The translations under genes and the position numbers were made by a program. Below the pieces are notes generated by a model, which was given only the letters and a program-made list of their open reading frames with translations, did no database searches and had not been told where the DNA came from. From an uncultured Gammaproteobacteria bacterium (lineage in GTDB: Bacteria; Patescibacteriota; Patescibacteriia; UBA11705; JABHMO01), in NCBI GenBank assembly GCA_964590105.1, contig CAZPYM010000001.1, positions 431,782-495,781 on the forward strand: a stretch of DNA of 64,000 nucleotides, in the 5' to 3' direction. Below, one piece after another: positions 5,076-63,566 of this stretch; positions within the stretch are counted from its first letter, which is position 1, and each line of letters begins with the position of its first letter.

Positions 5076-7643
5076 TTACAACTCCACTAATTCATCCTTC
5101 AATTCCGCGATCTTCTGCAAAGCCTGGAGCGGCGTGAGTTCATCAACCTTCAAATTTGCCAATTCGCTCGAAACTTTCTTTTCTTTTGGCGTTGCTTGGA
5201 GCGCCAGACGGGTCTGCTCTGCTCTTTTTGTTAATTTAATTTCAGTCCGATTTTCAAGTCCGGCGAGGATTTCATTGGCGCGCGAAGTTAATTCCTCCGG
5301 CAGGCCGGCGATTTTTGCCACTTCAATTCCATAGCTCTCTGAAGTAGCGCCTTTAACAATTTTGTGAAGAAATACCACGCGCCCCTTGTCTTCGCTCACT
5401 GCCACGCAATAGTTTTCAGCCCGCTCAAGATTTTCCGCCACTGACGTCAATTCATGGTAATGAGTGGCAAATAAGGTTTTGGCGCGAAGATTATTGTGAA
5501 TATGCTCCATCATTGCCCAGGCAATGGAAACACCGTCGTAAGTGGAAGTGCCGCGTCCGGGCTCATCCAAAATTATAAGCGAATTTTTACTGGCATTATT
5601 TAAAATATTGGCCGCTTCCTGCATTTCCGCCATAAAAGTGGAAACGCCCTGCGTCAGATTGTCTGAAGCGCCGACCCGGGTAAAAATCCTGTCAACAACG
5701 CCGATTTCCGCGGCTTCAGCCGACACAAAACTACCGGTTTGCGCCATAAGAACGATCAACGCTGTCTGGCGCAAAAAACTTGATTTACCACTCATGTTCG
5801 GACCGGTCAGCAAAATAAATTCATTCTTGTCGTGATCCAAAACCAAATCATTTGGCACATATCTTTCTCTTTGAAATTTTTCTATCACCGGATGTCGACC
5901 GCTAGAAATTTTTATTTTTCCTGAATTATTCACAACAGGACGGCAAAAATTATTTTCACTTGCCAAGACCGCCAGGCCAAGAAAAATATCTAGGCGAGCA
6001 ATCAGATCAGTGGTTTTTTGCAAGGACGCAAAATACTTAACAATCTTTTCAACTGTTTCAAGAAAAATCTGGCGTTCAATATTACAAATTTTTTCTTCCG
6101 CGCCAAGTATTTTTTCTTCGTATTCTTTTAATTCAGGAGTAATGAATCGTTCGGCATTAACCAATGTTTGTTTGCGAATATAATCATCAGGCGCTTGATT
6201 CAGATTGGCATTGCTGATTTCAATATAATAGCCAAACACCCGATTAAACTTCACTTTCAAAGACGAAATACCGGTTCGCTCCACTTCCCTGGCCTGCATT
6301 TGCAAAAGCCAGTCTTTGCCGCCGCGGGAAATTTTCCGGAGTTCATCAAGCTCTTCATTATAATTATCCTTAATCATACCGCCCTCGACAATCAAGGCCG
6401 GTGGCTCCTCAACAAAAACTTCATCCAGCAATTGAACCAATTCTTCGTGATTGTCCAGTTCAGATTGAGTTTGAATCAACAGCGCTGATTTTTTTTGTTC
6501 AAGCAATCTTTTTATCTCAGGAACAATAGTTAAACTTTTTTTCAAACCCAAACAGTCGCGCGCGTTTCCGCGTCCACAGCCAAGCCGCGCCATGAGGCGC
6601 TCCAAATCAGCCATTAACTTTAGTTTTTCAATTAAACTTTTTATTAAAATTAAATCTTGTTTAATTTCTCCGACCGCTTCGAGCCGCTTTTCAATATACT
6701 CCGGATTTAATAACGGATAAAATAGCCAGCGCCTGAACATCCGGCCACCCATACTGGTCGTTGTTTTGTCAATTACGGACAATAAAGAACCCTGGAATTC
6801 ACCGGAAAAGTTCGCCCGGAATAATTCCAAATTTCTGATTGTCGCCTCGTCCAAAACCATTCGATCGGAAAAATTGTAGCGGCTAATCTTGGTAATATGC
6901 GCCAATTCTGATTTTTGATTGTCTTTTAAATATGCAAGTAACCGACCGGCGGCGCAGATTGCCTGTTCCATGTTTTCCAGTCCAAATGACTGCAGATTTT
7001 TCATTTTAAAATGCCGCGTCAGAATATTGTACGGTTTTTCAAAAACTGAAAGATCAAAAACATTAACATGACTTTGCTCCGCCACAAAATCGCGGCAACG
7101 GGTGTCATTGGCCAAACTTTTATTAATAATTACTTCAGTGGCTCTGATTCGGAACAATTCATTTTTTAAAACATTTAAATCACTGATTTCAGCCGCTAAA
7201 AACTCACCGGTTGTCAGATCAGCCACCGCCAGCCCCCAGATATTTTTTTCAAGCGTCAAGCTGGCAATATAATTATTTGAATTGTTTTGCAAAGTTGAAT
7301 TCACGAGCGTTGTACCTGGCGTAACAACCTGAGTTACTTCACGTTTCACAATTCCGGGCAATGAAGGATCGCTCACCTGGTCGCAGATCGCCACTCTTTT
7401 TCCGGCTTTTAATAATTTAGCCAGATAACTTTCGAGAGCATGATGCGGCACGCCGCACATGGGCGTTTCATTCGCCGCCCCCTTGTGTCTCGCTGTCAAG
7501 ACAATATCCAAAATACCTGAAGCCTGCCGGGCATCCTCTCCAAAAAGTTCGTAAAAATCGCCCAAACGAAAAAACAACAACTCATTAGGATGCTTTTCTT
7601 TTATTTCCCGATATTGTTTCAACATTGGAGTTAGTTCGCTCAT
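5076..7643 (-). CDS. mutS: DNA mismatch repair protein MutS
   Basis: MSELTPMLKQYREIKEKHPNELLFFRLGDFYELFGEDA mismatch-binding N-terminus; Walker A GPNMSGKSSFLRQ; DEPGRGTSTYDG; 855 aa. Confidence 0.92.
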   Translation of the reverse strand: MSELTPMLKQYREIKEKHPNELLFFRLGDFYELFGEDARQASGILDIVLTARHKGAANETPMCGVPHHALESYLAKLLKAGKRVAICDQVSDPSLPGIVKREVTQVVTPGTTLVNSTLQNNSNNYIASLTLEKNIWGLAVADLTTGEFLAAEISDLNVLKNELFRIRATEVIINKSLANDTRCRDFVAEQSHVNVFDLSVFEKPYNILTRHFKMKNLQSFGLENMEQAICAAGRLLAYLKDNQKSELAHITKISRYNFSDRMVLDEATIRNLELFRANFSGEFQGSLLSVIDKTTTSMGGRMFRRWLFYPLLNPEYIEKRLEAVGEIKQDLILIKSLIEKLKLMADLERLMARLGCGRGNARDCLGLKKSLTIVPEIKRLLEQKKSALLIQTQSELDNHEELVQLLDEVFVEEPPALIVEGGMIKDNYNEELDELRKISRGGKDWLLQMQAREVERTGISSLKVKFNRVFGYYIEISNANLNQAPDDYIRKQTLVNAERFITPELKEYEEKILGAEEKICNIERQIFLETVEKIVKYFASLQKTTDLIARLDIFLGLAVLASENNFCRPVVNNSGKIKISSGRHPVIEKFQRERYVPNDLVLDHDKNEFILLTGPNMSGKSSFLRQTALIVLMAQTGSFVSAEAAEIGVVDRIFTRVGASDNLTQGVSTFMAEMQEAANILNNASKNSLIILDEPGRGTSTYDGVSIAWAMMEHIHNNLRAKTLFATHYHELTSVAENLERAENYCVAVSEDKGRVVFLHKIVKGATSESYGIEVAKIAGLPEELTSRANEILAGLENRTEIKLTKRAEQTRLALQATPKEKKVSSELANLKVDELTPLQALQKIAELKDELVEL

Positions 7644-13604: not shown

Positions 13605-13777
13605 AAACTAATATTAATATTAAGTAAAGATAAACACAAAACTCATTATAACAAAACTGTTCAAAACAAACAATTGTGTATACAAAAACCGTTTTCAAAA
13701 CGGCCAATTTTCAACTTTTGTTATTTGTTATATTACGCAAATAAGAATCGTACGAATTACCAAGATTGCTGATCCTA

Positions 13778-13830
13778 ATTTGTTATTTGTAATTTGTTTG
13801 TGATTTGTTGTTTGTAATTTGTAATCTTTC
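13778..13830. repeat. degenerate heptamer tandem repeat, family TTTGTAA (TTTGTTA TTTGTAA TTTGTTT GTGATTT GTTGTTT GTAATTT GTAATC)
   Basis: Read directly; the same word family recurs at 18000-18170, 23400-23455 (reverse orientation) and 59841-59900. Confidence 0.7.
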
Positions 13831-15054: not shown

Positions 15055-15195
15055 ATTTTTCTCAAAACGCGTATCGCATAACGCATTGCGCGTAACGTAA
15101 AACGACTAACTCATCATTATAAACACAAATTTCAAACGCTTTATTAACAACGTTTGAAATTGCTCTGTGCCTTAAAATTCCTGCTTTATTTTAGT

Positions 15196-17999: not shown

Positions 18000-18170
18000 G
18001 TGAATAAAACGAAAATCACAAATTCCGAACTACAAATCACAAACAATAAAGTATAAATAACAAATTACAATCAACTTTACTATCAATCAAGTTAGATTCT
18101 GACGCCTTTGGATTCATTTGAAATTTGTAATTTGTTTGTAATTTGGAATCTGTACTTTGTGATTTACAGT
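18000..18170. repeat. intergenic heptamer-word repeats in inverted orientation (ACAAATCACAAACAA...AACAAATTACAATCAA at 18020-18070, then TTTGTAATTTGTTTGTAATTTGG at 18121-18150), a potential long imperfect hairpin between pilB and pilC
   Basis: Read directly; 18121-18145 is the reverse complement of the ACAAATTACAAA words upstream. Confidence 0.65.
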
Positions 18171-18171
18171 T

Positions 18172-22175: not shown

Positions 22176-22251
22176 ATTTAATTCAGTTTATAAGGTTCGT
22201 AAAATTCGTAAAGTTTATCAAGTTTGCGCCAAAGGCGGAAACTTTTAACTT

Positions 22252-23364: not shown

Positions 23365-23399
23365 ATAAGTTTATTAGTAAATAAATGATGAGTAGTGAA

Positions 23400-23455
23400 A
23401 AAATTACAAACCACAAACAACAAATCACAGGCAAATCACGAATTACAAACAAAAT
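23400..23455. repeat. heptamer-word repeat (AAATTACAAACCACAAACAACAAATCACAGGCAAATCACGAATTACAAACAAA) upstream of pilM
   Basis: Read directly; reverse-orientation copy of the TTTGTAA family. Confidence 0.65.
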
Positions 23456-23663
23456 GAAGATGTGAAATAAAATAAACGTTAGGAGACCTAAGAAGATAGA
23501 AAAGAAAAGACGGCTACCCCAATTTCTAATTTCAAATTTCTAGTTTCGCTTCTTCCTCCCTTACTCTTCTCACCCATTTCCATTCTTATTCGTTCATACT
23601 GATATTCCACAAAATTTATTATATCATTTTTCAACTAAAAAAGGAATTATTTATACACACCAA

Positions 23664-25708: not shown

Positions 25709-25745
25709 TCAACCCTAGTTTCTAGTTTCCAGTTTCCAATTTCTA
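25709..25745. repeat. heptamer tandem repeat, family AGTTTCY (CCCTAGTTTCTAGTTTCCAGTTTCCAATTTCTATTTTCCAATTTC)
   Basis: Read directly; a nearly identical word string is at 56504-56545. Confidence 0.7.
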
Positions 25746-26147
25746 TTTTCCAATTTCATCAAGTGCTTTATTTACCAGCGCATCCGCTTCTGTGTTCTGC
25801 TCTCTATAAAGATGTTTATATACAATTTTTTTGAAATGATGCTGTAAATTGTAAATCTTCAAAAACTGCTGAGCCAATTCTTGGTTTTTCACTTTGTATT
25901 CTCCTTTCAACTGTTTCACAACAAGTTCGCTGTCCAAATTAAATTCCAATTCCGTACCACCCAACTCTTTTGCTTTTTCCAGCGCAAAAACCACGGCCTG
26001 ATACTCGGCCTGATTGTTGGTAGTCTCGCCAATGTATTTGCCTTCACCGTGCAAAACTTTACCTTTTTCATTTTTAATTACATACCCGATTGCAGCCGGG
26101 CCGGGATTGCCCCTCGCTCCCCCGTCGCAGTTTATTGTTAGTTTCAT
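25743..26147 (-). CDS. rnhA: ribonuclease HI
   Basis: MKLTINCDGGARGNPGPAAIGYVI...NNQAEYQAV...EL...NTEADALV, the RNase H DEDD carboxylates. Confidence 0.85.
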   Translation of the reverse strand: MKLTINCDGGARGNPGPAAIGYVIKNEKGKVLHGEGKYIGETTNNQAEYQAVVFALEKAKELGGTELEFNLDSELVVKQLKGEYKVKNQELAQQFLKIYNLQHHFKKIVYKHLYREQNTEADALVNKALDEIGK

Positions 26148-39172: not shown

Positions 39173-39241
39173 ATTTACAGATTACAGATCAATACGGAAG
39201 TACGGATATTTAATCAGTATATCAGTACAATCAGTAATCAT

Positions 39242-40916: not shown

Positions 40917-41036
40917 ATTATTTTTAAGTTAAAAGTTTCCGCCATTGGCGGATGCGCCTTTGGCACAAAAAGTGAAAAGCGATATTAGCGGTTTTTCGCA
41001 CCTACCACTTCTATCACTTCTTTCTCTTTTTATTTA

Positions 41037-43218: not shown

Positions 43219-43350
43219 AAATTCAAAGCACAAAACTCAAAGCTCAAAGAACAAAAAAAACTTAAAGTGTAAAATTCAAAATATAAAAACAACCTTGGAA
43301 TTTTAAATTTTTAATTTTAGATTTCCTTTGGACTTTAAATTTTGTACTTT
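43205..43350. repeat. intergenic imperfect palindrome built from A-rich heptamer words (CAAAGCACAAAACTCAAAGCTCAAAGAAC...TTAAAGTGTAAAATTCAAA // TTTGGACTTTAAATTTTGTACTTTGGGCTTT)
   Basis: Read directly: the second arm is approximately the reverse complement of the first. Confidence 0.6.
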
Positions 43351-43355
43351 GGGCT

Positions 43356-48575: not shown

Positions 48576-48595
48576 AGCCTTTCCCTAAATGTAAA

Positions 48596-48660
48596 TTCAC
48601 CAATTCGCTAATTCACTAATTCGCCAATTCACACTTCAATCACACCTCACAACTTTAACT
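48596..48660. repeat. octamer-word tandem repeat (NNNAATTC: GTAAATTC ACCAATTC GCTAATTC ACTAATTC GCCAATTC ACACTTC...)
   Basis: Read directly; similar words at 39811-39850 and 44480-44520. Confidence 0.6.
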
Positions 48661-48667
48661 TATTTTC

Positions 48668-52839: not shown

Positions 52840-52910
52840 GTATTGATTTAATCTGTTCATTTCACTAACCGTCTCAGGCAGCTATGCCACAAATAGCAAA
52901 GGGAGAAAAC

Positions 52911-54035
52911 ATGGGAAAGAAAGCGTGGACATTCGCAATTCTGCTGGGGCTTGTAGCTTCTATTTCCGTACCATGGATTGTTATCAAGATCGTTGCCAAG
53001 ACGCAGAGCCCCGAGACGCACGAGCCGACGATGATGGAGAACGGCGACAACCCGGTAGAGTCCGGCCAGGACGAGCCCACAATGATGGAAAACAGCGACA
53101 ACCCGGTAGAGTCAAGCCAGGACGAACCCACGACTCTTCGCCTGCCGATGTACGTACAAACGACGGTCCAGGCGCGCCTCCTCACGATGGAGGAACTGGC
53201 CTTGGACTTTCCGGAAAACTATGACATTGAACAACGGGGTGACTATCACAGAATCGCCAAGAACTGCACGGCGACCGAACTGGCCACCAAGGCTGATTGC
53301 CTGCCGCTCACCGGCTGGTTCAAGAAGGCTTACTTGAAGTCTGACGGTTCCATTACCGTGGACTTCCAATGCAATCCAAACGACTCGCGAATGTGTACCG
53401 TGCTTTTGCGCGGACCTGTAAGCGATGGAACTGTCTACGGCTGTGGTCTTCCGGATGCGGCCCTCGAAGATATCCTCGTCATGGACTTACTTGGCGCCGG
53501 ATATAGCCTTCTGAAAGACGGGGCAGTCGAATACATCCGCTACGGCGGCAAAGACCTAACCGGCGGCCACCATTCATTCTTCATCAAGGACGGCCTGATC
53601 TATGGTAGGTACGGAACCGATGAAGAGCTCGTGCGCCGCGCTGACGGCTCGTTTGTCCGCGAAAGCGGCTCGTTCGCCGAGCAGATCAGGAAAGAGGCTC
53701 AGGCTAAGAAAGTGCTGGACTTTCTCGGCTCCGGATACTCCATGCGCTACGACGCCGTGTTCGAGTTTATCCAATACGACAAGCAGGACGTGGTGCCTCG
53801 CGGCTACCATTACTACATCCTCCGCGATGATCGGATCTACGGCATTCTCGGCGCGACCGAAGAGGAAGTTCTCGCCAACCGGCCGAAGATTCCGCCAGAA
53901 AAAAGGGATATGATCGGTCAATCATGTCTTTGTCCGGATCTCGGACTTGGGACATGGGTGGAACTCGGGTACAAAGAGCTGGTCTGCGTTCATCTGCCGG
54001 AAAGAGGTCCCATCTGCCATTCCAACTGCTTCTAG
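52911..54035 (+). CDS. secreted hypothetical repeat protein (GC-rich cassette; alternative upstream start 52884)
   Basis: Signal peptide MGKKAWTFAILLGLVASISVPWIV; tandem EPTMMENxDNPVESxQD repeats; duplicated about 55-aa module (LLGAGYSLLKDGAVEYIRYGGKD... / FLGSGYSMRYDAVFEFIQYDKQD...); SD GGGAGA before 52911; GC about 57%. Confidence 0.65.
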   Translation: MGKKAWTFAILLGLVASISVPWIVIKIVAKTQSPETHEPTMMENGDNPVESGQDEPTMMENSDNPVESSQDEPTTLRLPMYVQTTVQARLLTMEELALDFPENYDIEQRGDYHRIAKNCTATELATKADCLPLTGWFKKAYLKSDGSITVDFQCNPNDSRMCTVLLRGPVSDGTVYGCGLPDAALEDILVMDLLGAGYSLLKDGAVEYIRYGGKDLTGGHHSFFIKDGLIYGRYGTDEELVRRADGSFVRESGSFAEQIRKEAQAKKVLDFLGSGYSMRYDAVFEFIQYDKQDVVPRGYHYYILRDDRIYGILGATEEEVLANRPKIPPEKRDMIGQSCLCPDLGLGTWVELGYKELVCVHLPERGPICHSNCF

Positions 54036-54101
54036 CCAAACTCGCCCAGTCCCAACATCCGTTGGGCAAGCCCCGGGCAAATTCAACAAAATAATTGAAA
54101 G

Positions 54102-54135
54102 GAGTTCAAGCCTCACCGCTTGAGCTCTTTTTTAT
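54102..54135 (+). terminator. rho-independent terminator
   Basis: GAGTTCAAGC-ctcaccgc-TTGAGCTC followed by TTTTTTATT. Confidence 0.6.
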
Positions 54136-54137
54136 TA

Positions 54138-54151
54138 GCGTAGTTTCGCGT
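54138..54151 (+). repeat. 14-bp motif GCGTAGTTTCGCGT (copy 1; a GTTTCGCGT half-copy again at 54165-54173)
   Basis: Identical 14-mer at 57928-57941, the other end of the hrcA-grpE-dnaK operon. Confidence 0.8.
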
Positions 54152-54181
54152 TCTGTTTTACACGGTTTCGCGTATTCCTCT

Positions 54182-54463
54182 TTATTTTTCTTCCTTAAAT
54201 CCAATTTCCTTATTTAATTCCGGCGACTCTTCAATCACGCCATACTTTTCTTCATACTTTTTCAAATTGTCAGTCAAGGCGGCTACCATTTTTTTGTAGT
54301 GCCCCGGATTGGAAATCAGTTTGCCGACCACCTTACCGGACGGTGGCAAGACATTGGCAAACATCAGGATAAATTCTTCCTTTGTATGCTGTACCTGCAT
54401 CAGATTGGTGTATTCTCCGCCGGCAATGTTGTCGCTGATCTGAATTTTTTGTTGTTCTGTCAT
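54182..54463 (-). CDS. small conserved hypothetical protein at the distal end of the dnaK operon
   Basis: 93-aa ORF tightly linked to dnaK; no motif recognised. Confidence 0.5.
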   Translation of the reverse strand: MTEQQKIQISDNIAGGEYTNLMQVQHTKEEFILMFANVLPPSGKVVGKLISNPGHYKKMVAALTDNLKKYEEKYGVIEESPELNKEIGFKEEK

Positions 54464-54528
54464 ATATAATATTTCTCTATATTATTAATTCCGCGTAAAC
54501 CCGCGTTAAATCCGCTGAGTTCACGTCT

Positions 54529-56457
54529 TTATTTCTTTTCCTCAAAATCCGCATCCTGCGTTTTGTCGTCAGATCCTGAGCTTGCCGAAGCGTCACTATC
54601 CTTTCCGGTTCCCTTCTCGCTCTTCTCTCCCTGTTTCCCCTGTTCCGCCTGCGCCTTGTACATTGCCTCGCCCGCCTTCATCGCCACCTGATTAATTTCT
54701 TCCAGTTTTTTCTTGATCGCTTCAATATCTTCTCCGTCCTTAATCTTTTTAAGTTCTTCGACTTTTGTCGTTAAATCTTTTTTTATTTCCTCGGAAATTT
54801 TATCACCGGATTCCTTCATCATTTTTTCAGTTGTATAGCAAATACTCTCTGCCTGATTTTTGATTTCAATTGCTTCTTTCTTTTTCTTGTCTTCATCAGC
54901 ATGCTCCTCCGCGTCTTTTTTCATTTTTTCAATTTCTTCTTTGCTTAAACCGGACGACGCTGTTATTGTAATGGCCTGCTCTTTATTTGTCGCTTTGTCT
55001 TTAGCTTTTACATTCAGAATGCCATTGGCATCAATATCAAAGCTGACTTCAACTTGAGGCACGCCTCTCGGAGCCGGCGGAATTCCGTCGAGAATAAATC
55101 TACCAAGTGTTTTATTGCCCTCGGACATTTCACGTTCGCCTTGAAGCACATGAATCTCAACCGTATTCTGATTATCAGCGGCGGTTGAAAAGACCTGTGA
55201 TTTCGAAGCCGGAATTGTCGTATTTTTTTCAATAAGTTTTGTCATTACTCCTCCCAGAGTTTCGATCCCAACTGAGAGCGGTGTAACATCAAGCAAAAGC
55301 ACATCTTTAACATCTCCCTGCAAAACTCCAGCCTGAACAGCCGCGCCCATAGCCACCACTTCATCAGGATTAACGCCCACGTGAGGTTTTCGTTTGAAAA
55401 ACTCTTCCACTTTTTTTAAAACAAGCGGCATGCGGGTCATCCCGCCGACCATCAGAACTTCTTCCAGATCTTCAACTTTTAGACCGGCGTCTACTAAAGC
55501 TTTTTTGCACGGCTCCAAAGTTCGGTCAACCAGAGAGGCAACTAATTCCTCAAGTTTTGCCCTGCTGACTTTTTTTACCAAGTGAGTCGGATTCCCGCTG
55601 GCATCCTGCGCAATAAAAGGCTGGTTAATTTCCGTTTCTTGCGCCGTTGACAATTCAATCTTGGCTTTTTCCGCCGCTTCTTTCACTCGCTGCAAAGCCA
55701 TTTGATCTTTACTCAGGTCAACGCCGGTTTCAGATTTGAATTCTTTAATTATCCAGTCAATTATTACTTTATCAAAATCATCGCCGCCCAAATGAGTATC
55801 TCCATTGGTAGATTTCACCTCAACAGTGTCTTCGCCAACATCTAAAATTGAAATATCAAAAGTTCCGCCGCCAAGATCATAAACCGCGATTTGCTCGCCT
55901 TTTTTCTTGTCAAAACCATAGGCCAAAGCTGCTGCAGTGGGCTCATTTATAATACGGCGAACTTTCAATCCGGCAATTTCACCAGCATCTTTTGTTGCTT
56001 GTCTTTGCGCGTCATTAAAATACGCCGGCACGGTAATTACCGCTTCCTCTATTTTTTCACCCAATTTTTCTTCCGCATCCGATTTCATTTTTTGGAGTAG
56101 CATTGCTGAAATTTCCTGTGGTGTATATTCTTTGTCTGCCATTTTGACTTTTACGCCGTCACCCGACTGAACTAGTTCATAAGGAAGCGTTTCTTTGTCT
56201 TTTTGGACTTCATCATCTGAGAAGCGAAGCCCGATCATTCGTTTAATTGAAAAAACTGTATCTTTTGGATTGGTTACTGCTTGTCTTTTCGCAGAAAGCC
56301 CCACCAATCTTTCTCCTGTTTTGCCGATTGCAATTACGGAAGGCGTAGTTCTATTGCCTTCTTTATTTTCTAAAATTTTTGGCTTTCCGCCCTCAACAAT
56401 TGCCATGCAACTGTTAGTTGTGCCCAAATCGATTCCTAGAATTTTTGACATATTCAT
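54529..56457 (-). CDS. dnaK: molecular chaperone DnaK (Hsp70)
   Basis: [25 protein letters not shown]-type motifs, EEVD-less C-terminus, 642 aa. Confidence 0.93.
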
Positions 56458-56503
56458 TTTTAGAAACCGGGAACAGGAAATTGGAAATCAGGGTTTAGCG
56501 CTG

Positions 56504-56545
56504 TTACTTTCTACCCTAGTTTCCAGTTTCAAGTTTCCAATTTCG
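56504..56545. repeat. heptamer tandem repeat, family AGTTTCY (CCCTAGTTTCCAGTTTCAAGTTTCCAATTTCGTTTTA) between grpE and dnaK
   Basis: Near-copy of 25709-25745. Confidence 0.7.
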
Positions 56546-56547
56546 TT

Positions 56548-57144
56548 TTATTTATTATTGACTACTACCTTCGCCGCCTGAACACATTTTTTGTTCAGCA
56601 TATATCCAGGTCGAATTTCTTTTATAACTTGGCCATCTTTTTCTTGCTCTGAAGGACGCTCCATAGTTCTGCCGGAGACAGCCTGTGGCGTGCTTGCCGG
56701 AGCGGCTGAATTTTCCACCGTTCCACCGGAGGCAAATTGTGGAGCGCTTGCGGGAGCGGCTGAATCTTCCACCGCCTCGTGCAGACCAGGATCAAATTTT
56801 TCTCCGACAGTCTTGATGGTCTCAACTCCATTTTGCGCCAGGAAATCCTCCAGTTGCTTTTTGATGTAACCGAAACCGATTACCCATGGACTATCTTTTT
56901 CATTTTCCGGAATCTGACTAAACGCCGCTTTGAAATTATCCAAAACCGGCAATATTTCCATGATCAAATTCGCATTTGCGTATCGAACATAGTCTATTCT
57001 CTTTGCATCAAATTCTTTTACTAAATTCTGATAGTCAGCTTGTGCTCTTTTCCAGCCGTTTAGGTACTCTTCACATTTTTGCTTAAGATCTTCTTCCTTA
57101 CTTTTACCTTTAACCTTTGGTCTTTTAACTTCTTTTTCTGCCAT
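56548..57144 (-). CDS. grpE: nucleotide exchange factor GrpE (with an in-frame internal tandem duplication)
   Basis: GrpE coiled-coil and beta-domain motifs; C-terminal AAPASAPQFASGGTVENSAAPASTPQAVSG repeat. Confidence 0.85.
   Translation of the reverse strand: MAEKEVKRPKVKGKSKEEDLKQKCEEYLNGWKRAQADYQNLVKEFDAKRIDYVRYANANLIMEILPVLDNFKAAFSQIPENEKDSPWVIGFGYIKKQLEDFLAQNGVETIKTVGEKFDPGLHEAVEDSAAPASAPQFASGGTVENSAAPASTPQAVSGRTMERPSEQEKDGQVIKEIRPGYMLNKKCVQAAKVVVNNK
56684..56774. repeat. about 54-bp period tandem duplication inside grpE (TGTGGNGNGCTTGCSGGAGCGGCTGAATYTTCCACCG twice)
   Basis: Read directly, 56684-56720 against 56738-56774. Confidence 0.7.
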
Positions 57145-57149
57145 ATATT

Positions 57150-57842
57150 TTATGTTAATAATTTTACTGACTCTCGCACCAAGGCATAATTTTTTTGATA
57201 ATTCATGCGCATTGGACCGATAAGAGCAATTATTCCTTTATATTTTCCTAATTGGTATTTAAAAACTACTAAACTACAATCACAACCGAGCGGATTATTT
57301 GAACCGATCAGAACCTCCGCCTCTTGAATCGCCTTTTTATCAAGCTCAATAATTTTTGAATCCAGGCGATCAATTACCGAAGACAGGTTGACTACCAAGT
57401 CTGATCGCTGAAATTCCGGCTGGGAAAAAATATTTGACAGGCCGGTGTAATAATTGTCGCATTCTGCAAAGGTGACCATTACACCCTGCTTTGACAGTTC
57501 GGCAATTTTTTGGGCGAAATTTTTTATTTTAAGCCGATCTTCTGTTTGTTGTTTTTTTATTTCAAGTAATATTTTGTTTTCTAGCTCGGTTAATTGCTTT
57601 GTTTTATCCAAATAATTTTCAACATAAAACTGATAAGCTTTTTCTGTCGGAACCCGTCCGGCAGAAGTGTGCGGCTGGAAAACGTAACCTTCTTTTTCCA
57701 AAGCAACTAATTCATTTCTCACCGTTGCAGGGCTAAGCTTTTCTTTCATTTTGGCGACTAAAAAACTTGAGGCCAAAGGTTTTGCATCTTTTATAAATGC
57801 CTCAATAATTCGTTTTAATATTTTTCTTTGTCTTTCGTTCAT
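57150..57842 (-). CDS. hrcA: heat-inducible transcription repressor HrcA (ORF-track start 57860 would be TTG; ATG at 57842)
   Basis: N-terminal winged HTH (RQRKILKRIIEAFI...PATVRNELVALEKEG), HrcA C-terminal domain; CIRCE immediately upstream. Confidence 0.8.
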   Translation of the reverse strand: MNERQRKILKRIIEAFIKDAKPLASSFLVAKMKEKLSPATVRNELVALEKEGYVFQPHTSAGRVPTEKAYQFYVENYLDKTKQLTELENKILLEIKKQQTEDRLKIKNFAQKIAELSKQGVMVTFAECDNYYTGLSNIFSQPEFQRSDLVVNLSSVIDRLDSKIIELDKKAIQEAEVLIGSNNPLGCDCSLVVFKYQLGKYKGIIALIGPMRMNYQKNYALVRESVKLLT

Positions 57843-57864
57843 ACTAAACCATTCTAACAAACAA

Positions 57865-57891
57865 TTAGCACTCCTGTCAAGTGAGTGCTAA
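57865..57891. promoter_or_regulatory. CIRCE operator (TTAGCACTC-N9-GAGTGCTAA), perfect consensus, with TTGACA -35 inside the spacer and TAGAAT -10 just downstream on the minus strand
   Basis: TTAGCACTC 57865-57873, spacer CTGTCAAGT, GAGTGCTAA 57883-57891; minus strand reads TTGACA (57875-57880) then TAGAAT (57851-57856). Confidence 0.9.
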
Positions 57892-57927
57892 TTTGTTACT
57901 TTTTTCGCTTTTGCGTTGTAAGGGTTC

Positions 57928-57941
57928 GCGTAGTTTCGCGT
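57928..57941 (+). repeat. 14-bp motif GCGTAGTTTCGCGT (copy 2, preceded by GGGTTCGCG)
   Basis: Identical to 54138-54151. Confidence 0.8.
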
Positions 57942-59798
57942 CTACTTCACTACCCCATCTTTCAATTTCCCCTTGCTGTCATAAATAAGTTTCGTCGTCA
58001 CCGTTCCTAAATCTTTTCGTATCAGCTTGCCAGTGGCTTTGTCTGCTCCGGAAATAGTTAAATCAGTCAGGAGAGCAGGATATGTCCCCTTTTGTCCAGC
58101 CGTCGGAATAATGCCTACCTCAAAAGCAAATCCAATATTTTCCGGATTAACCGGAACCTTGGAAATCTGCCAGGTTAATGTTTTGGTTGCATCGTCATAT
58201 TTAATCGGGTCGCCGACCGGCACATTGGTTTTTTCATTCCAGCTGACATTGAAGGGCAGGGTGGCGGAAACCGTAACGTTCTCAACATCATTAATATCAT
58301 TAATCATTTTGGCAAAAATCCAATATTTGGTTTCCTTGCCAACTCGCGGTGGAATTGAGCCGCGACCGAGCTGATCGCCGGTTTTCGCGTAATACATTGG
58401 ATAGGCTTGGACTGATAAATTGCTATTCAATTGAAATCCCAAAGTTGGCGCAAAGAATCCCGCCTCTTGCCCTTCGGCTTTAAACCCATACGACAAGGCG
58501 CTGTTCAAAGTTCTCGACTGACTGCCGGCCACATATTCCCTGGTGCCAATACTTAACTTGATCTCACCTGATTCGCCGGGTTGGATCAAGGCCAGCCGCG
58601 GAATCTCTTGAAAATCCCAGGCAATCATTTGCTCTTCAAATCGACCATTATCCATCTGAATATTTTTCAAATCCCAATAATCATCTGATAAATCAAGCTT
58701 AAATGAGACGTTCTCAATAGTATGGCCGCCCTTATTAAAATATGAAATCATTGCCTCAACTGACTGGCCGGGAGTAATTGTCCCATCGCCCGAGGCGCTA
58801 AATTTGACTTCAAATTTTGGATCGAAAATTTCAATTGAATAAACTTTTTGCGCCTGCAACAATTCCTGGCCGTTCGGGCTTTTCCAGATTAATTCGAAAG
58901 TTAAATCAGCTGACTCCCGGTCTGTTTCAGCTGCCAAGCCAAAGGCCAGACTGTATTTTTCTTCGTGATCCAAATCAATTTGCCAAGTGTAATCATCTTG
59001 CTGAAGCGGTTTGCCGGCAAATGAGGTTCGCAAAGATAATTGTTGATAATCGGTGGAAGCATTATTATTGGCTATCTCGCCGGTAATCTCAATCTTCTGA
59101 TTTTTTATCATTTGAGCCGGCGTATCAGTCGTGAGAACCAGGAAACTACTACCAATGTTGTAACGGAAAAATTTTGTTTTGCTGAATTGTCCCCACAGCC
59201 GTTCGCCCTTTTTGTCGGTTTTGTAAAAGCTGGCATTAACCACCAAATTATAATCCTCTCCAATACTGCCAAATGTTCTGACTTTTATTAAGATCTTGCC
59301 ATTAGCCCCTGGCCCCAGATCGCCAAGATGAAGAGTGTTGTGATTAAAATCATAACCGGCGGCGGAAACATCCAACAATTCAAAATAGCCTTCGTATTTA
59401 AAGCTCAAATTTACTTCTTGAAGAGGAAATTTATTTTCATTGGAATAATCAACCTGAAAAACTGTTTCCTGTCCGCTGATCAAAGCCTCCCTCGGACCAG
59501 ATACTTCCAGCTGGAAATTATCAGAAAAATAATGAAATCCGCCCCAGAGCCAAAATATATTCAAGCCAATCAAAACCAAAACTCCGGCCGCGATTAACAG
59601 ATCCATTACCAAATGTTTTTTATTGAATTTATATCTTACATTCCACCGCTGTTTTAATCTTTTGTGCGGATATGTAATTATATTGACAATCACATTCTTT
59701 TTGCCCGCTTTGTCCGCCGCTTTGATAATGTCTTCCTCAATTTTTTCCAAATCATCGCCATTGGAATCGACTTCGAATGTTTTAATTTTCTTTCCCAT
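57942..59798 (-). CDS. large hypothetical membrane-anchored protein with an extracellular beta-rich domain
   Basis: N-terminal cytoplasmic segment, TM (LLIAAGVLVLIGLNIFWLWGGF), long extracellular region; no family recognised. Confidence 0.5.
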   Translation of the reverse strand: MGKKIKTFEVDSNGDDLEKIEEDIIKAADKAGKKNVIVNIITYPHKRLKQRWNVRYKFNKKHLVMDLLIAAGVLVLIGLNIFWLWGGFHYFSDNFQLEVSGPREALISGQETVFQVDYSNENKFPLQEVNLSFKYEGYFELLDVSAAGYDFNHNTLHLGDLGPGANGKILIKVRTFGSIGEDYNLVVNASFYKTDKKGERLWGQFSKTKFFRYNIGSSFLVLTTDTPAQMIKNQKIEITGEIANNNASTDYQQLSLRTSFAGKPLQQDDYTWQIDLDHEEKYSLAFGLAAETDRESADLTFELIWKSPNGQELLQAQKVYSIEIFDPKFEVKFSASGDGTITPGQSVEAMISYFNKGGHTIENVSFKLDLSDDYWDLKNIQMDNGRFEEQMIAWDFQEIPRLALIQPGESGEIKLSIGTREYVAGSQSRTLNSALSYGFKAEGQEAGFFAPTLGFQLNSNLSVQAYPMYYAKTGDQLGRGSIPPRVGKETKYWIFAKMINDINDVENVTVSATLPFNVSWNEKTNVPVGDPIKYDDATKTLTWQISKVPVNPENIGFAFEVGIIPTAGQKGTYPALLTDLTISGADKATGKLIRKDLGTVTTKLIYDSKGKLKDGVVK

Positions 59799-59840
59799 AT
59801 TTTATTTTATTATTCTTCATCTGACACGCGCCATGAAATA

Positions 59841-59900
59841 TTTATTGTTATTTGTTATTTGTTTGTAATTTGTTATTTGTCATTTGTAATTTTCATGTTT
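59841..59900. repeat. heptamer tandem repeat, family TTTGTAA (TTGTTATTTGTTATTTGTTTGTAATTTGTTATTTGTCATTTGTAATTTT)
   Basis: Read directly. Confidence 0.7.
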
Positions 59901-60962: not shown

Positions 60963-62996
60963 TTAAAACCCCGCCAGCGTAAAAACATCGGCAGTGGTGG
61001 CGATAATTTCAACTTTTCCATCGCCGTCTGTGTCTGAAGTTACAACTTTGACACCGGCCCGCAAATTTTTGTCAAAAGCGAAAAAATCAGGACCATCCGC
61101 CTTACCGTTTTTATCAAAAGACTTAACGTGCGGTCCGCCGCCATTGCCCGGCCCCGTGATAATTTCATCCACGCCGTCGCCGTCAATATCGCCGGCCGCC
61201 ACATTTACCCCGCCACGAAATTTCGGATCATAGGCGAAAAATCCCGGATTAATACAACGTCCGTCAGGCGCGAAAACGCGCACATGAGGGCCCCCGCCAA
61301 AACCAGCGCCGGTTACTATTTCATACCAACCGTCGCCATCCAAATCAGCAATGGTAACATTCACGCCGCCGCGAAATTCCGGGCCATAGGCAAAAAATCC
61401 CGGATTAATCAGTTTGCCACTGCTGTTAAAAATTCTGACTTGCGGTCCGCCACCTTTTTCCGTGCCGGTAATTATTTCCATTGTGCCGTTATTATCCAGA
61501 TCACCGACAGTAATATTAATACCACTATCGTACTTTTCTGTATATGGAAAAAAGCTGGTTATTAATTCGCCTTTTGAATTATAAATTTTTACTTGATTAA
61601 TGTCCGCCACTAGAATTTCTTTTTGCCCATCATTATTTATGTCTTTCTCAATTATCTGACTTCCGCCTTTGTAATTTTCATTGTAGGCAAAAAATCCGGT
61701 TCTAGCCACATGGCCGAACTCGTTGTAAACTTTGGCAAACGAGCCATTGACATAAGTGGCATTATAAATATTTTCAATCGGCCGAAGCAGGACAAGGCCG
61801 TCATTGGCCGCCAAATCCACATAATCGACAAAAGAGCCGTCATTGGTCAGCGCGTCCTGCGTACCATGCAATTTTTCATATTCGCCGCCAAGATCAAGTC
61901 CATATTCTTTGTTCGTGGAATTAACCAGAATCAAGCCGTTTTTAAAATCCCGGCGCCACAAGCCCTCGGCATATGTTTTGGAATTATTAAGAACATTTGT
62001 TGCTTGCCCGGCCGGCTCGCCAAGATATGCTTCATACTCGTCATACCACCATATTTCCCGATGGCTCTGATCGCCATTATCAAAGCTGTAATAACCGTTA
62101 TCAAGAAGCGCGCTCGCCAGACCAAAACGCATTTTTTTGTAATCCTGACTATTTCCTGAGTTATTTACGTTGGCATTAAGAATGCTGAGCGATGGATGCG
62201 CGCCATTACTATTTACAAATGAATATTTTTTCAGAGTTTCAGCCCAACCCTTGGCTGGAAAATGTTCATACAACACTCCATTTAAATATTTGTAATAATA
62301 GTCGCCGCCATTACCCATTATCAAAGCGTCTTCACCCAAGAGCATGCGGGTATTGCCAAGCAAGACTTCCATGCCTTCGCGCCACTTATTATTAATTTCA
62401 CCGATTGGTTCTGCCACGCCGTTCTGATCAAGGTCAATATTATAAGATTCCATAAAGGAAAGATCATCCCAGACATTATCATAAAATACTCCATCCCAAT
62501 AACCGCTGGCCATTAATTCATTTTTCACAAACAACGGCAAAACATCCTGCCAGCGCTTACCGTTTTTAATGGGCGCGTTTGAAGTCACATTAAGCATCGG
62601 ATTTGGCGCCCACCAAGCGACTTTCTTCCCGCCTGAATCTTTTAGCCACCAGCTCTCATCAATCTGCTGATATAATTTTTGTCGGAGCGTCCCTGCGAGC
62701 GTACCCGAGTCTCCCCGGATTTCTTCAGACGCAATGTAAGCCAAAAGTTTTACATCAGGATTTAATTTTTTAATTAATTTCAAACTTTCCGGCGAATAGG
62801 TCTGCACTTCCATGGCAATGATAAGCACATCCCATTTGGCTAATTCTTTTGCTTCTTCCGTTGTAATATCCCAGCGGAAAAATAGATTCGCCAGCTTTGG
62901 ATATTGATTGTGATTCAAATCAGCTCCCGTGGTGATAAACAAGGGAGTTATAATTAAAAATAAAATAATTGTTGTGTATAAAAACTTTTTACGCAT
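60963..62996 (-). CDS. secreted protein with an N-terminal glycoside-hydrolase-like (TIM-barrel-like) domain and C-terminal FG-GAP/VCBS repeats
   Basis: Signal peptide; five or more repeats of D(L/I)D(N/G)(N/D)G..EI(I/V)TG.G.GGGP(Q/H)V(R/K).F. Confidence 0.6.
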   Translation of the reverse strand: MRKKFLYTTIILFLIITPLFITTGADLNHNQYPKLANLFFRWDITTEEAKELAKWDVLIIAMEVQTYSPESLKLIKKLNPDVKLLAYIASEEIRGDSGTLAGTLRQKLYQQIDESWWLKDSGGKKVAWWAPNPMLNVTSNAPIKNGKRWQDVLPLFVKNELMASGYWDGVFYDNVWDDLSFMESYNIDLDQNGVAEPIGEINNKWREGMEVLLGNTRMLLGEDALIMGNGGDYYYKYLNGVLYEHFPAKGWAETLKKYSFVNSNGAHPSLSILNANVNNSGNSQDYKKMRFGLASALLDNGYYSFDNGDQSHREIWWYDEYEAYLGEPAGQATNVLNNSKTYAEGLWRRDFKNGLILVNSTNKEYGLDLGGEYEKLHGTQDALTNDGSFVDYVDLAANDGLVLLRPIENIYNATYVNGSFAKVYNEFGHVARTGFFAYNENYKGGSQIIEKDINNDGQKEILVADINQVKIYNSKGELITSFFPYTEKYDSGINITVGDLDNNGTMEIITGTEKGGGPQVRIFNSSGKLINPGFFAYGPEFRGGVNVTIADLDGDGWYEIVTGAGFGGGPHVRVFAPDGRCINPGFFAYDPKFRGGVNVAAGDIDGDGVDEIITGPGNGGGPHVKSFDKNGKADGPDFFAFDKNLRAGVKVVTSDTDGDGKVEIIATTADVFTLAGF

Positions 62997-63000
62997 TCAA

Positions 63001-63060
63001 CGTTTATTAAGCTCAAAGTTACAAGCTCAAAGTTCAAAGTAAATTTAAAATTTCAAATAT
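63001..63060. repeat. A-rich heptamer words (GCTCAAAGTTACAAGCTCAAAGTTCAAAGTAAATTTAAAA), left arm of inverted repeats flanking the four-helix-bundle gene
   Basis: The reverse complement of 63505-63565 gives CCAAGTCCAAAGCTCAAAGTTCAAAAATCAAAGTAAACTTCAAG..., sharing the GCTCAAAGTTCAAA and CAAAGTAAA words. Confidence 0.6.
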
Positions 63061-63070
63061 AAAACTTCAA

Positions 63071-63493
63071 CTAATCACAAGGAGAATCCTCCCTACTGAC
63101 GTCTTCGTGCTTGTCAACTGCTGTTTTAATTCTTGTTCCTTCCCTATCATGCACTATTGAAGCGAAAATTTTCGTTAATTCAAATGCTTCTTGAGCTGAA
63201 GCCATTCTCTCTGTTTCCAAAATGCTATCTTCAGGAACGCATAGCAATCGCAACCACAATCTGCTTTCCTTAGCTTCTTTCCGACAAAGCTTTAACCTAT
63301 GTAATTCGTCTTTCTTGCTTATTGCTTCGCAAGCTTCTATATAATTGGCGGCTACTGAACCAGATGATCTAATCACCTGTTTGCCATCTTCAATGTTTGA
63401 GGTAGTTTTAGGTATCTGGCAAACATGCGCTCTAACCCTTTTGGCAAAATTAAAAGTTCTTTCTTCTAGATCATACTTTTTGTCTTGAAGCAT
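63071..63493 (-). CDS. four-helix-bundle protein of the family usually encoded inside 23S rRNA intervening sequences
   Basis: DLEERTFNFAKRV...SSGSVAANYIEA...SKKDELHRLKLCRKEAKESRLWLRL resembles the recalled family consensus (DLxxR.F.FA..V......P..........QL.RSATSIGANIAEG...S.KDF...L.IA.GE..ET..WL). Confidence 0.65.
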   Translation of the reverse strand: MLQDKKYDLEERTFNFAKRVRAHVCQIPKTTSNIEDGKQVIRSSGSVAANYIEACEAISKKDELHRLKLCRKEAKESRLWLRLLCVPEDSILETERMASAQEAFELTKIFASIVHDREGTRIKTAVDKHEDVSREDSPCD

Positions 63494-63499
63494 ATGCCA

Positions 63500-63565
63500 G
63501 TATTTAAATTTTTAACTTTAGACTTGAAGTTTACTTTGATTTTTGAACTTTGAGCTTTGGACTTG
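63500..63565. repeat. T-rich heptamer words (TTTAAATTTTTAACTTTAGACTTGAAGTTTACTTTGATTTTTGAACTTTGAGCTTTGGACTTGG), right arm of the inverted repeats
   Basis: Approximately the reverse complement of 63001-63060. Confidence 0.6.
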
Positions 63566-63566
63566 G

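Follow-up and report, generated by a model that had tools for sequence, protein, structure and literature searches.

The DNA analysed here, a stretch of 64,000 nucleotides from the tiny genome of an uncultured CPR bacterium belonging to Candidatus Kuenenbacteria (hereafter the window), carries a heat-shock operon whose spacers and borders contain short repeated words. The operon, its neighbours and the repeat arrays are listed below in order of position; the arrays are referred to throughout as sites A, B and C.

54102..54133: intrinsic terminator with a 10-bp stem (GAGTTCAAGC/GCTTGAGCTC), then a T-run on the plus strand
54132..54173, minus strand: site A, four units, ACGCGAAACC GTGTAAAACAGA ACGCGAAACT ACGCTAATAA, at offsets 0/10/22/32
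54182..57842, minus strand: the operon hrcA-grpE-dnaK-DUF3467
54182-54463, minus strand: DUF3467 gene
54487..54517, minus strand: site C, three units, CAGCGGATTTA ACGCGGGTTT ACGCGGAATT, in the dnaK-DUF3467 spacer, at offsets 0/11/21
54529-56457, minus strand: dnaK
56548-57144, minus strand: grpE
57150-57842, minus strand: hrcA
57851..57891, minus strand: hrcA control region, with CIRCE (TTAGCACTC-N9-GAGTGCTAA) at 57865-57891
57900..57916, minus strand: degenerate further units of site B, ACGCAAAA and GCGAAAAAA
57922..57941, minus strand: site B, two perfect 10-nt units, ACGCGAAACT ACGCGAACCC, holding the second 14-mer (57928-57941)
57942..59798, minus strand: upstream gene for a 618-aa protein without a Pfam family, conserved and syntenic in relatives

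Upstream of hrcA, CIRCE overlaps the -35 box (TTGACA, 57880-57875), and the -10 box (TAGAAT) follows at 57856-57851. The ATG of hrcA (57842) stands only 9 nt past the -10 box, so the mRNA is probably leaderless. No terminator lies between the 618-aa gene and hrcA, either in the window or in its nearest relative (L047). At the opposite end of the operon, the hairpin at 54102..54133 has a flanking A-tract and a weak U-tract on the minus strand and is therefore probably bidirectional; it would serve both a convergent gene for a 383-aa protein and the heat-shock operon. Rfam gave no match at gathering thresholds in the whole window and none at E up to 1 in 53900-58100, and no tRNA or tmRNA genes were found in the window. 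Among the window ORFs that were scanned against Pfam, no regulator other than HrcA was found.

The plus strand of this region carries the 14-mer GCGTAGTTTCGCGT at 54138-54151 and at 57928-57941. The original prediction, in which these were identical repeats bracketing the operon, holds as regards sequence and placement: both copies are exact, no further copy is present in the window at up to 2 mismatches, and one copy lies 31 nt past the DUF3467 stop codon while the other lies 34 nt upstream of CIRCE. Half-copies had also been described beside both 14-mers. One of these is real, an exact GTTTCGCGT at 54165-54173; the other, GGTTCGCGT at 57923-57931, agrees at only 8 of 9 positions. When the comparison of the two sites is lengthened, 17 of 18 bases agree (54135-54151 and 57925-57941). 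What had been overlooked is the minus-strand orientation of the operon, which puts each repeat immediately 3' of a stop codon. Repeated 14-mers number 147 in the window, alongside 86 clusters of 17-mers with no more than 1 mismatch, and a bare pair of 14-mers is thus within chance. It is the context of the pair, and not the bare repeat, that exceeds chance. Both copies fall in non-coding DNA, which makes up 8.8% of the window.

Each 14-mer spans one and a half copies of a tandem unit of about 10 nt that has the core ACGCGR on the minus (operon) strand. Site B starts directly behind the TAG stop codon (57942-57944) of the 618-aa gene and has the build of a phased array (direct repeats with a 10-11-bp period in 2-4 copies), its two perfect units standing at offsets 0/10. 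Site A starts 8 nt past the DUF3467 stop codon, ahead of the probably bidirectional terminator, and includes both the first 14-mer and the exact half-copy. Site C, a third array in the spacer between dnaK and DUF3467, had not been noticed in the original prediction. It starts 11-12 nt past the dnaK stop codon and has the skeleton ACGCG-N5-ACGC at 54493-54506; its units join a predicted RNA hairpin, the whole spacer having a folding energy of -18 kcal/mol (z -5.5). Across the arrays, cores are spaced 10-11 nt apart, with up to four units at offsets 0/10/21-22/31-32, and all three operon-spacer arrays are on the sense strand and start 0-12 nt behind a stop codon. The self-complementarity of CGCG also allows adjacent cores to pair as 4-bp mini-hairpins.

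The exact pattern ACGCG-N5-ACGC, which was derived post hoc, has 3 matches in the window, all in operon spacers and on the operon strand, where 0.25 were expected; for this pattern, chosen after the data were seen, 1 of 100 shuffles reached 3 matches. It does not occur in 14.3 kb more DNA of the same genome (78 kb overall). As for the concern that the 14-mer is a generic dispersed intergenic motif, no other copy exists in these 78 kb, yet the sharing of short repeat words among spacers is a general habit of this genome. The arrays are one family within the short-unit repeat arrays that fill about half of its spacers.

Comparison with related genomes gives a mixed picture of conservation. Contigs L031-L044 belong to the same strain (99.9-100% identical to the window) and are uninformative on conservation, and the collections searched contained no relative between 87% and 100% HrcA identity. 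The nearest relative, L047, has an hrcA with 84% nucleotide identity, or 68% at third codon positions. In this one species pair site B is kept at 21 of 22 positions (ACGCGAAACTACGCGAA(A/C)CCTT), CIRCE and the promoter are identical, and about 25 nt of spacer next to site B contain indels and mismatches. With a neutral identity of 68%, the binomial estimate for 21/22 in this single species pair is about 0.002-0.004. Further units of site B are in phase in L047 (ACGCAAAACA ACGCGACGTA; offsets 0/10/22/32). The grpE-dnaK spacer is unalignable between the window and L047, which indicates that spacers are free to change at such a distance.

In L049/L050 and L051, where DUF3467 has 84% nucleotide identity, neither site A nor site C is present, and L049 carries an array of another unit, GTACAGAT, at the position of site A. 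A related array was found in L001 (85% HrcA identity), where four ACGCGGAT units follow dnaJ: ACGCGGATAA ACGCGGATCTA ACGCGGATTG ACGCGGATAA. They begin 1 nt past the dnaJ stop codon, at offsets 0/10/21/31, and are followed by an A-tract and then a canonical terminator, an arrangement shared with site A; in the window, dnaJ is without an array. The four independent arrays (sites A, B and C and that of L001) all point the same way with respect to the gene upstream. Site B, being common to L047, is the older copy, and site A a recent, nearly identical one. The ACGCGR arrays are a young family, so far seen in only three species of one Candidatus Kuenenbacteria clade.

Among the explanations proposed earlier, we give almost no credence to the idea that the 14-mers are target-site duplications or att-like repeats flagging the heat-shock operon as horizontally acquired. 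Its one support is the direct-repeat geometry on both sides of a gene block, a feature shared with genomic islands. The idea is refuted by the identity of the operon and its flanking genes across close relatives: the order 677aa-96aa-618aa-hrcA-grpE-dnaK...YacP-DnaJ-CysRS is common to all of them, and hrcA-grpE-dnaK lie between the 618-aa and YacP/DnaJ neighbours in L001, L015, L002, L003 and L017, with no empty site. Unlike a genomic island, the block is syntenic and lacks mobility genes and a compositional shift. Only hrcA, grpE, dnaK and DUF3467 lie between the two copies, no integrase or transposase is present among the window ORFs scanned or called, and the GC values for 54-58 kb, 0.43 and 0.39, compare with a window mean of ~0.41. 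The repeats are moreover internally tandem and adjoin no element ends, and a third copy (site C) lies inside the block. At this locus the operon is ancestral. A role as terminators had also been suggested, but the 14-mers are not terminator-like: no terminator-like site was found at either, the predicted stems there have only 3-6 bp with no U-run after them, and the real terminator is the hairpin and T-run adjoining site A. A variant of this idea, which we consider improbable, is that site B is the collapsed intrinsic terminator of relatives, with the ACGCG/CGCG outer stem and loop kept and the inner stem and T-run lost, and that site A is its copy. A hairpin with a T-run does stand just upstream of CIRCE in every other relative. 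That of L001 consists of ACGCGATTTCGTAACTACGAAATCGCGT and a T-run, with ACGCGA..AACTACG..CG ordered, by eye, as in ACGCGAAACTACGCG of the window, and CGCG-N6-CGCG mini-hairpins are predicted. However, MAFFT did not align the L001 terminator and site B in that register, and L001 has a different gene upstream. A dead terminator remnant would not stay 21/22 in L047, and the variant fails on the four-unit arrays at site A and behind the L001 dnaJ.

Pure coincidence, meaning that 14 bases agree by chance between two unrelated spacers, could appeal to the repeated 14-mers and 17-mer clusters counted above. It is nonetheless very improbable, since both copies are in spacers, for which about 0.06 such 14-mer pairs are expected by estimate, and since further cores lie close by, site C repeats the skeleton, L001 has a related array and L047 an orthologous one. 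A close rival, to which we give real if tentative weight, is that the arrays are a neutral spacer minisatellite, produced by frequent short (7-11 nt) duplications and inter-spacer copying, with no sequence-specific role; the identical 14-mer would then have been copied recently from site B into site A. Significant short-period tandem structure is present in 22 of the 42 spacers of at least 45 bp, high tandem scores are ~26 times commoner in spacers than in coding DNA, and 34 spacer pairs have common words of at least 12 nt, several of them 16-18 nt long. Sister species have different units in orthologous spacers and do not conserve sites A and C, and units decay fast, as in GTGTAAAACAGA and ACGCTAATAA. 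Against neutrality stand the retention of site B at 68% neutral identity beside a spacer diverged with indels, the confinement of the ACGCGR family to chaperone-gene spacers in two genomes, the uniform orientation, and the array starts right behind stop codons. The presence of MutS (5076-7643) and MutL (1548-3362) in the window also counts against it, although loops of 7-11 nt largely escape mismatch repair; it led us to reject absent mismatch repair as the cause of slippage.

The best reading of the arrays, to which we assign a probability of roughly 40%, is that they are a phased binding platform for a factor that remains putative. In this view the retained arrays would offer several phased sites, at the borders of heat-shock transcription units, to a putative oligomeric factor that binds nucleic acid. 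Such a platform could act on duplex DNA, with its units on one helix face and site B spanning about -78 to -97 relative to the start of hrcA, or at the level of the sense transcript, in a 3' UTR or between cistrons; we put the odds of these two forms as about even. The anatomy, phasing, restriction to operon spacers, footprint at site B (in one species pair) and uniform orientation of the arrays speak for this reading. The earlier suggestion that the two 14-mers are a shared, putative regulatory site is possible in light of the 10-11 bp phasing and the 21/22 conservation in L047 of the copy upstream of CIRCE. On the other side, site A, site C and the array of L001 stand at the 3' ends of genes, in two cases between convergent genes, and such places offer no promoter for control. 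The absence of sites A and C from L049/L050 and L051 and the lack of an array at the window dnaJ also count against a platform, as do the tandem arrays of many other units in 22/42 spacers, a general mutational habit that could yield the family.

The more specific proposal that ACGCGR arrays at 10-11 nt are putative recognition sites of an undescribed DNA-binding regulator or 3'-UTR-binding protein seems unlikely to us. If true, it would mean a second heat-shock control layer beside HrcA/CIRCE in CPR/Patescibacteria, and the recurrent repeat 'flavours' of spacers would be an uncatalogued system of dispersed cis-elements. DUF3467 and the 96-aa protein encoded near the operon were considered as candidate binders and set aside; neither has a PDB relative by sequence, and to the eye the 96-aa protein looks hydrophobic and membrane-like.

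Among known systems, the operator of CtsR has the consensus A/GGTCAAA NAN A/GGTCAAA and overlaps the -35/-10 boxes or the transcription start (PMC12634643). CtsR sites form a second heat-shock operator next to CIRCE in chaperone genes of Firmicutes and are found at dnaK/groEL promoters (PMC6305308). The arrays resemble this operator in being a direct repeat of heptad, 3 nt and heptad with a 10-bp period (here ACGCGAA ACT ACGCGAA, 57925-57941), in the position of site B next to a CIRCE-controlled dnaK operon, and in the A-rich tail of each heptad. They differ in that CGCGAAA and CGCGAAC agree with GGTCAAA at only 4/7 and 3/7 positions, that site B is about 44-45 bp upstream of the -35 box with no promoter overlap, and that three of the four arrays here are at gene 3' ends. 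No member of the CtsR family and no ctsR gene was found among the window ORFs scanned.

The boxes of OmpR/PhoB-family response regulators and of MraZ are made up of 2-4 direct repeats with a 5-7-nt core and a 10-11-bp period on one helix face. Repeat number, core size and period are similar in the arrays, and the four-unit layout resembles two dimers; the core sequence, however, shows no relation to theirs, none of the arrays but site B lies upstream of a promoter, and the putative regulator of the arrays is without a candidate. REP/BIME elements of proteobacteria are imperfect palindromes of 20-40 nt with strong stems, present in hundreds of copies. Like the arrays, they are short clustered repeats behind stop codons, in 3' UTRs or between cistrons, that are transcribed with the upstream gene and differ between orthologous spacers of related genomes. 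The arrays, in contrast, self-pair only by a 4-bp CGCG stem and occupy 3 sites in 78 kb, all at one operon; site B is predicted to form no stable hairpin of the REP/BIME kind (z -1.8 in the window, -0.55 in L047), and no RAYT-type transposase was seen in the window.

To our knowledge, CPR bacteria are uncultured and their regulation is almost unstudied, and the literature search gave no paper dealing with short intergenic repeats of their genomes. A conserved phased array beside CIRCE, the only recognisable regulatory element, would be a concrete starting point in the search for either a second regulator or a factor acting at mRNA ends. For annotation, short words that recur identically in the spacers of such genomes usually belong to tandem arrays that evolve fast, and should not be taken for insertion scars.

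Three minor observations may be added. Four phased ACGCG units were found at 92 loci in viral contigs, all of them generic 10-bp tandem repeats, mostly from high-GC phages, and unrelated to the present family. A link to restriction-modification was rejected because CGCG is not avoided (246 copies, observed/expected 0.9). The 3' ends of dnaK and DUF3467 are alike (54179-54199 against 54526-54546, 86% identity); duplication was rejected as the cause, and a bias in Lys/Glu codons is the most likely explanation.

The 14-mer GCGTAGTTTCGCGT that the original prediction placed on either side of the hrcA-grpE-dnaK-small gene operon is present at 54138-54151 and 57928-57941 of the forward strand, and a search of the window at up to two mismatches returned no further copy. 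Identity between the two sites reaches 17 of 18 bases. The half-copies said to lie beside both were partly borne out: a third copy of GTTTCGCGT lies at 54165-54173, and GGTTCGCGT at the second site matches at only 8 of 9 positions. Because the window is full of repeated 14-mers (147) and of 17-mer clusters with at most one mismatch (86), a bare repeat is ordinary here and proves nothing; context is decisive. The observation was correct but over-read. On the minus strand the 14-mer reads ACGCGAAACTACGC, and the repeats are short phased intergenic arrays, neither the bounds of an acquired block nor terminators. The arrays, built of units of about 10 nt with the core ACGCGR, lie in the spacers of the heat-shock operon as follows.

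57150-57842, minus strand, hrcA
56548-57144, minus strand, grpE
54529-56457, minus strand, dnaK
54182-54463, minus strand, DUF3467 gene, last of the operon
57941-57922, minus strand, site B, ACGCGAAACT ACGCGAACCC
54173-54132, minus strand, site A, ACGCGAAACC GTGTAAAACAGA ACGCGAAACT ACGCTAATAA
54517-54487, minus strand, site C, dnaK-DUF3467 spacer, CAGCGGATTTA ACGCGGGTTT ACGCGGAATT, same skeleton as sites A and B

The first base of site B directly follows the TAG stop codon of the 618-aa gene upstream, and 34 nt separate the array from CIRCE (57865-57891). CIRCE and the -35 box of the hrcA promoter (TTGACA-18-TAGAAT) overlap. Site A begins 8 nt past the DUF3467 stop codon and ends at the A-tract of a hairpin with a T-run at 54102-54133. 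That hairpin is the real terminator, probably a bidirectional one common to the operon and the convergent 383-aa gene, and the proposal that the repeats themselves terminate transcription does not hold. Core-to-core spacing is always 10-11 nt, or 22. Since CGCG is self-complementary, adjacent cores are able to form 4-bp mini-hairpins, with weak predicted stability at sites A (z -2.1) and B (z -1.8); site C is part of a stronger predicted hairpin (z -5.5 for the whole spacer). A search against Rfam gave no match. Phased ACGCGR arrays are a real, lineage-specific family, all on the sense strand with their onset directly behind stop codons, and as far as seen they appear confined to chaperone-gene spacers.

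In the nearest relative (L047), with hrcA identities of 84% over all nucleotides and 68% over third codon positions, the 618-aa gene likewise abuts hrcA and the array reads TAA ACGCGAAACT ACGCGAAACC TT ACGCAAAACA ACGCGACGTA ahead of CIRCE. The first 22 nt of the site B array are identical at 21 positions, indels and mismatches occur in the ~25 nt that follow, and CIRCE and promoter are identical; the grpE-dnaK spacer is unalignable. By our own calculation the binomial probability of 21/22 at 68% neutral identity is about 0.002-0.004, a single modest indication of constraint. A conventional hairpin and T-run with no ACGCG array stands upstream of CIRCE in L015, L045, L046 and L048 (one species) and in L001, L002, L003 and L019. 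In L001 (HrcA 85% identical) the units ACGCGGATAA ACGCGGATCTA ACGCGGATTG ACGCGGATAA, four in all, lie 1 nt past the dnaJ stop codon and are followed by an A-tract and canonical terminator, the layout of site A. Behind the stop codon, L049 and L050 (DUF3467 84% identical in nucleotides) have an array of another unit, GTACGGAT GTACAGAT..., and their dnaK-DUF3467 spacer is short and lacks ACGCG; in L051 the DUF3467 gene lies in another context. Sites A and C are not conserved and site B is shared with L047, so site B is the older copy and site A a recent, nearly identical one. The window (57843-57941) and L047 lack an intrinsic terminator between the 618-aa gene and hrcA; all other relatives have a hairpin and T-run at this place. 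Transcription could therefore run on from the 618-aa gene into the operon.

That the repeats are target-site duplications bounding an acquired block was rejected, and we give this idea practically no credence. By HrcA the window is closest to Candidatus Kuenenbacteria/Falkowbacteria MAGs of the Patescibacteria (CPR), and L001, L015, L002, L003 and L017 all preserve the order 677aa-96aa-618aa-hrcA-grpE-dnaK ... YacP-DnaJ-173aa-383aa-CysRS. The GC content of the operon block is unremarkable, and the ORFs that were scanned or called include no mobility gene; the operon is therefore ancestral at the locus. Species do differ in the adjoining DNA: relatives have additional genes, spanning 0-2.2 kb, between the 618-aa gene and hrcA, and other genes between dnaK and YacP. 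The 383-aa orphan gene (52884-54035, opposite strand to the operon) is without a Pfam family, has a local GC of 0.47, holds a coding 51-bp tandem repeat (x2.2) at 53020-53131 and is missing at the corresponding position in L001 and L015. Any acquisition in this region would concern this gene rather than the operon. A small GIY-YIG-type nuclease gene, recognized by eye from the sequence, is apparent directly after dnaK in L003 (14230-14700), L017 (13670-14140) and L015 (13560-14060), with hairpin-forming repeats (GTCATGCTGAG...CGAAGCACG) on both sides. This putative, mobile-looking insertion appears to occupy the place of the DUF3467 gene and site A.

We tentatively favor, with a probability of about 0.42, a putative phased binding platform for an oligomeric factor, which may act on DNA or on the transcript, over neutral spacer repeats, because site B shows a footprint, the four-unit phasing recurs and orientation is uniform. 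The main rival, a real possibility short of an even chance, is that neutral repeats spread by short duplications and copying; it draws on the absence of sites A and C from relatives and on a genome-wide habit of spacer tandem arrays. Among the 42 spacers that measure 45 bp or more, Tandem Repeats Finder and an autocorrelation test found 22 with significant short-period tandem structure, mostly of period 7, and high tandem scores are ~26 times commoner in spacers than in coding DNA. Words of at least 12 nt are common to 34 spacer pairs (several of 16-18 nt), the 14-mer pair being one case and not the longest, and unit 'flavours' recur in non-orthologous spacers and across species. A collapsed terminator remnant is unlikely: the L001 hairpin ACGCGATTTCGTAACTACGAAATCGCGT has the outer stem and loop in common by eye, but MAFFT does not support the register. 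Coincidence is more doubtful still. Exact ACGCG-N5-ACGC matches in the window number three, sites A, B and C (0.25 expected), a count reached in 1 of 100 shuffles for a pattern picked after the data were seen, and no more were found in an additional 14.3 kb from this genome (L038, L041).

Among known systems, CtsR operators (PMC12634643, PMC6305308) resemble site B in their heptad-3-heptad layout adjoining CIRCE, but array sequence and position relative to the promoter fail to match, and no ctsR gene was seen among the window ORFs scanned. Response-regulator or MraZ phased boxes have only geometry in common with the arrays. REP/BIME elements are also placed behind stop codons, but their strong palindrome and copy number are not matched.

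Imperfect tandem arrays with units of 7-9 nt are present in about half of the spacers, for example:

13605-13825, spacer
18047-18171, spacer
23365-23663, spacer
25713-25757, spacer
39173-39241, spacer
43234-43355, spacer
48576-48667, spacer
59799-59892, spacer

The flavours TTTGTAATTTG, AGTTTCC, CTCAAAG and AATTCRC recur, direct or inverted, in non-orthologous spacers and in other species; no description of such recurring arrays was found in the searchable literature. Inverted CTCAAAG-type heptad arrays (62997-63070 and 63494-63566), with a 17-nt word in common in inverted orientation, flank a 140-aa 23S_rRNA_IVP-family gene (63071-63493). The 18-nt word GGCGGAAACTTTTAACTT is common, inverted, to two distant spacers (22234-22251 and 40932-40949), both copies adjoining GCGCC...GGCGG motifs. 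A period-7 array, ACGCGCA ATGCGTT ATGCGAT ACGCGTT (15068-15093), immediately precedes the start codon of a D-Ala-D-Ala carboxypeptidase gene. Its core also contains CGCG, but its architecture is unlike that of sites A-C.

Within the operon, the spacer after grpE (56458-56547) is built of short tandem units that fold into a long hairpin (-30.7 kcal/mol, z -5.9). The orthologous spacers of L047 (1392-1492), L001 (11405-11522) and L005 (10755-10895), with z about -6, and of L015 (11372-11462), with z -1.8, also form a long hairpin. The unit sequence is unrelated in L047 and L001, so the sequence has changed and the structure has not, and the predicted hairpin may serve in mRNA processing or stability. 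In the hrcA control region (57840-57891) 9 nt separate the end of the -10 box TAGAAT from the ATG, and the mRNA is probably leaderless; this short layout with CIRCE over the -35 box is also found in L015, L001 and L047. Gene callers start hrcA at a TTG 18 nt further upstream (236 aa), a position that precedes the -10 box. An internal tandem duplication of 54 nt with 78% identity is found in grpE (56660-56767), and a 26-nt direct repeat with one mismatch (61229-61254 and 61385-61410) lies inside the 677-aa GHL15/FG-GAP gene.
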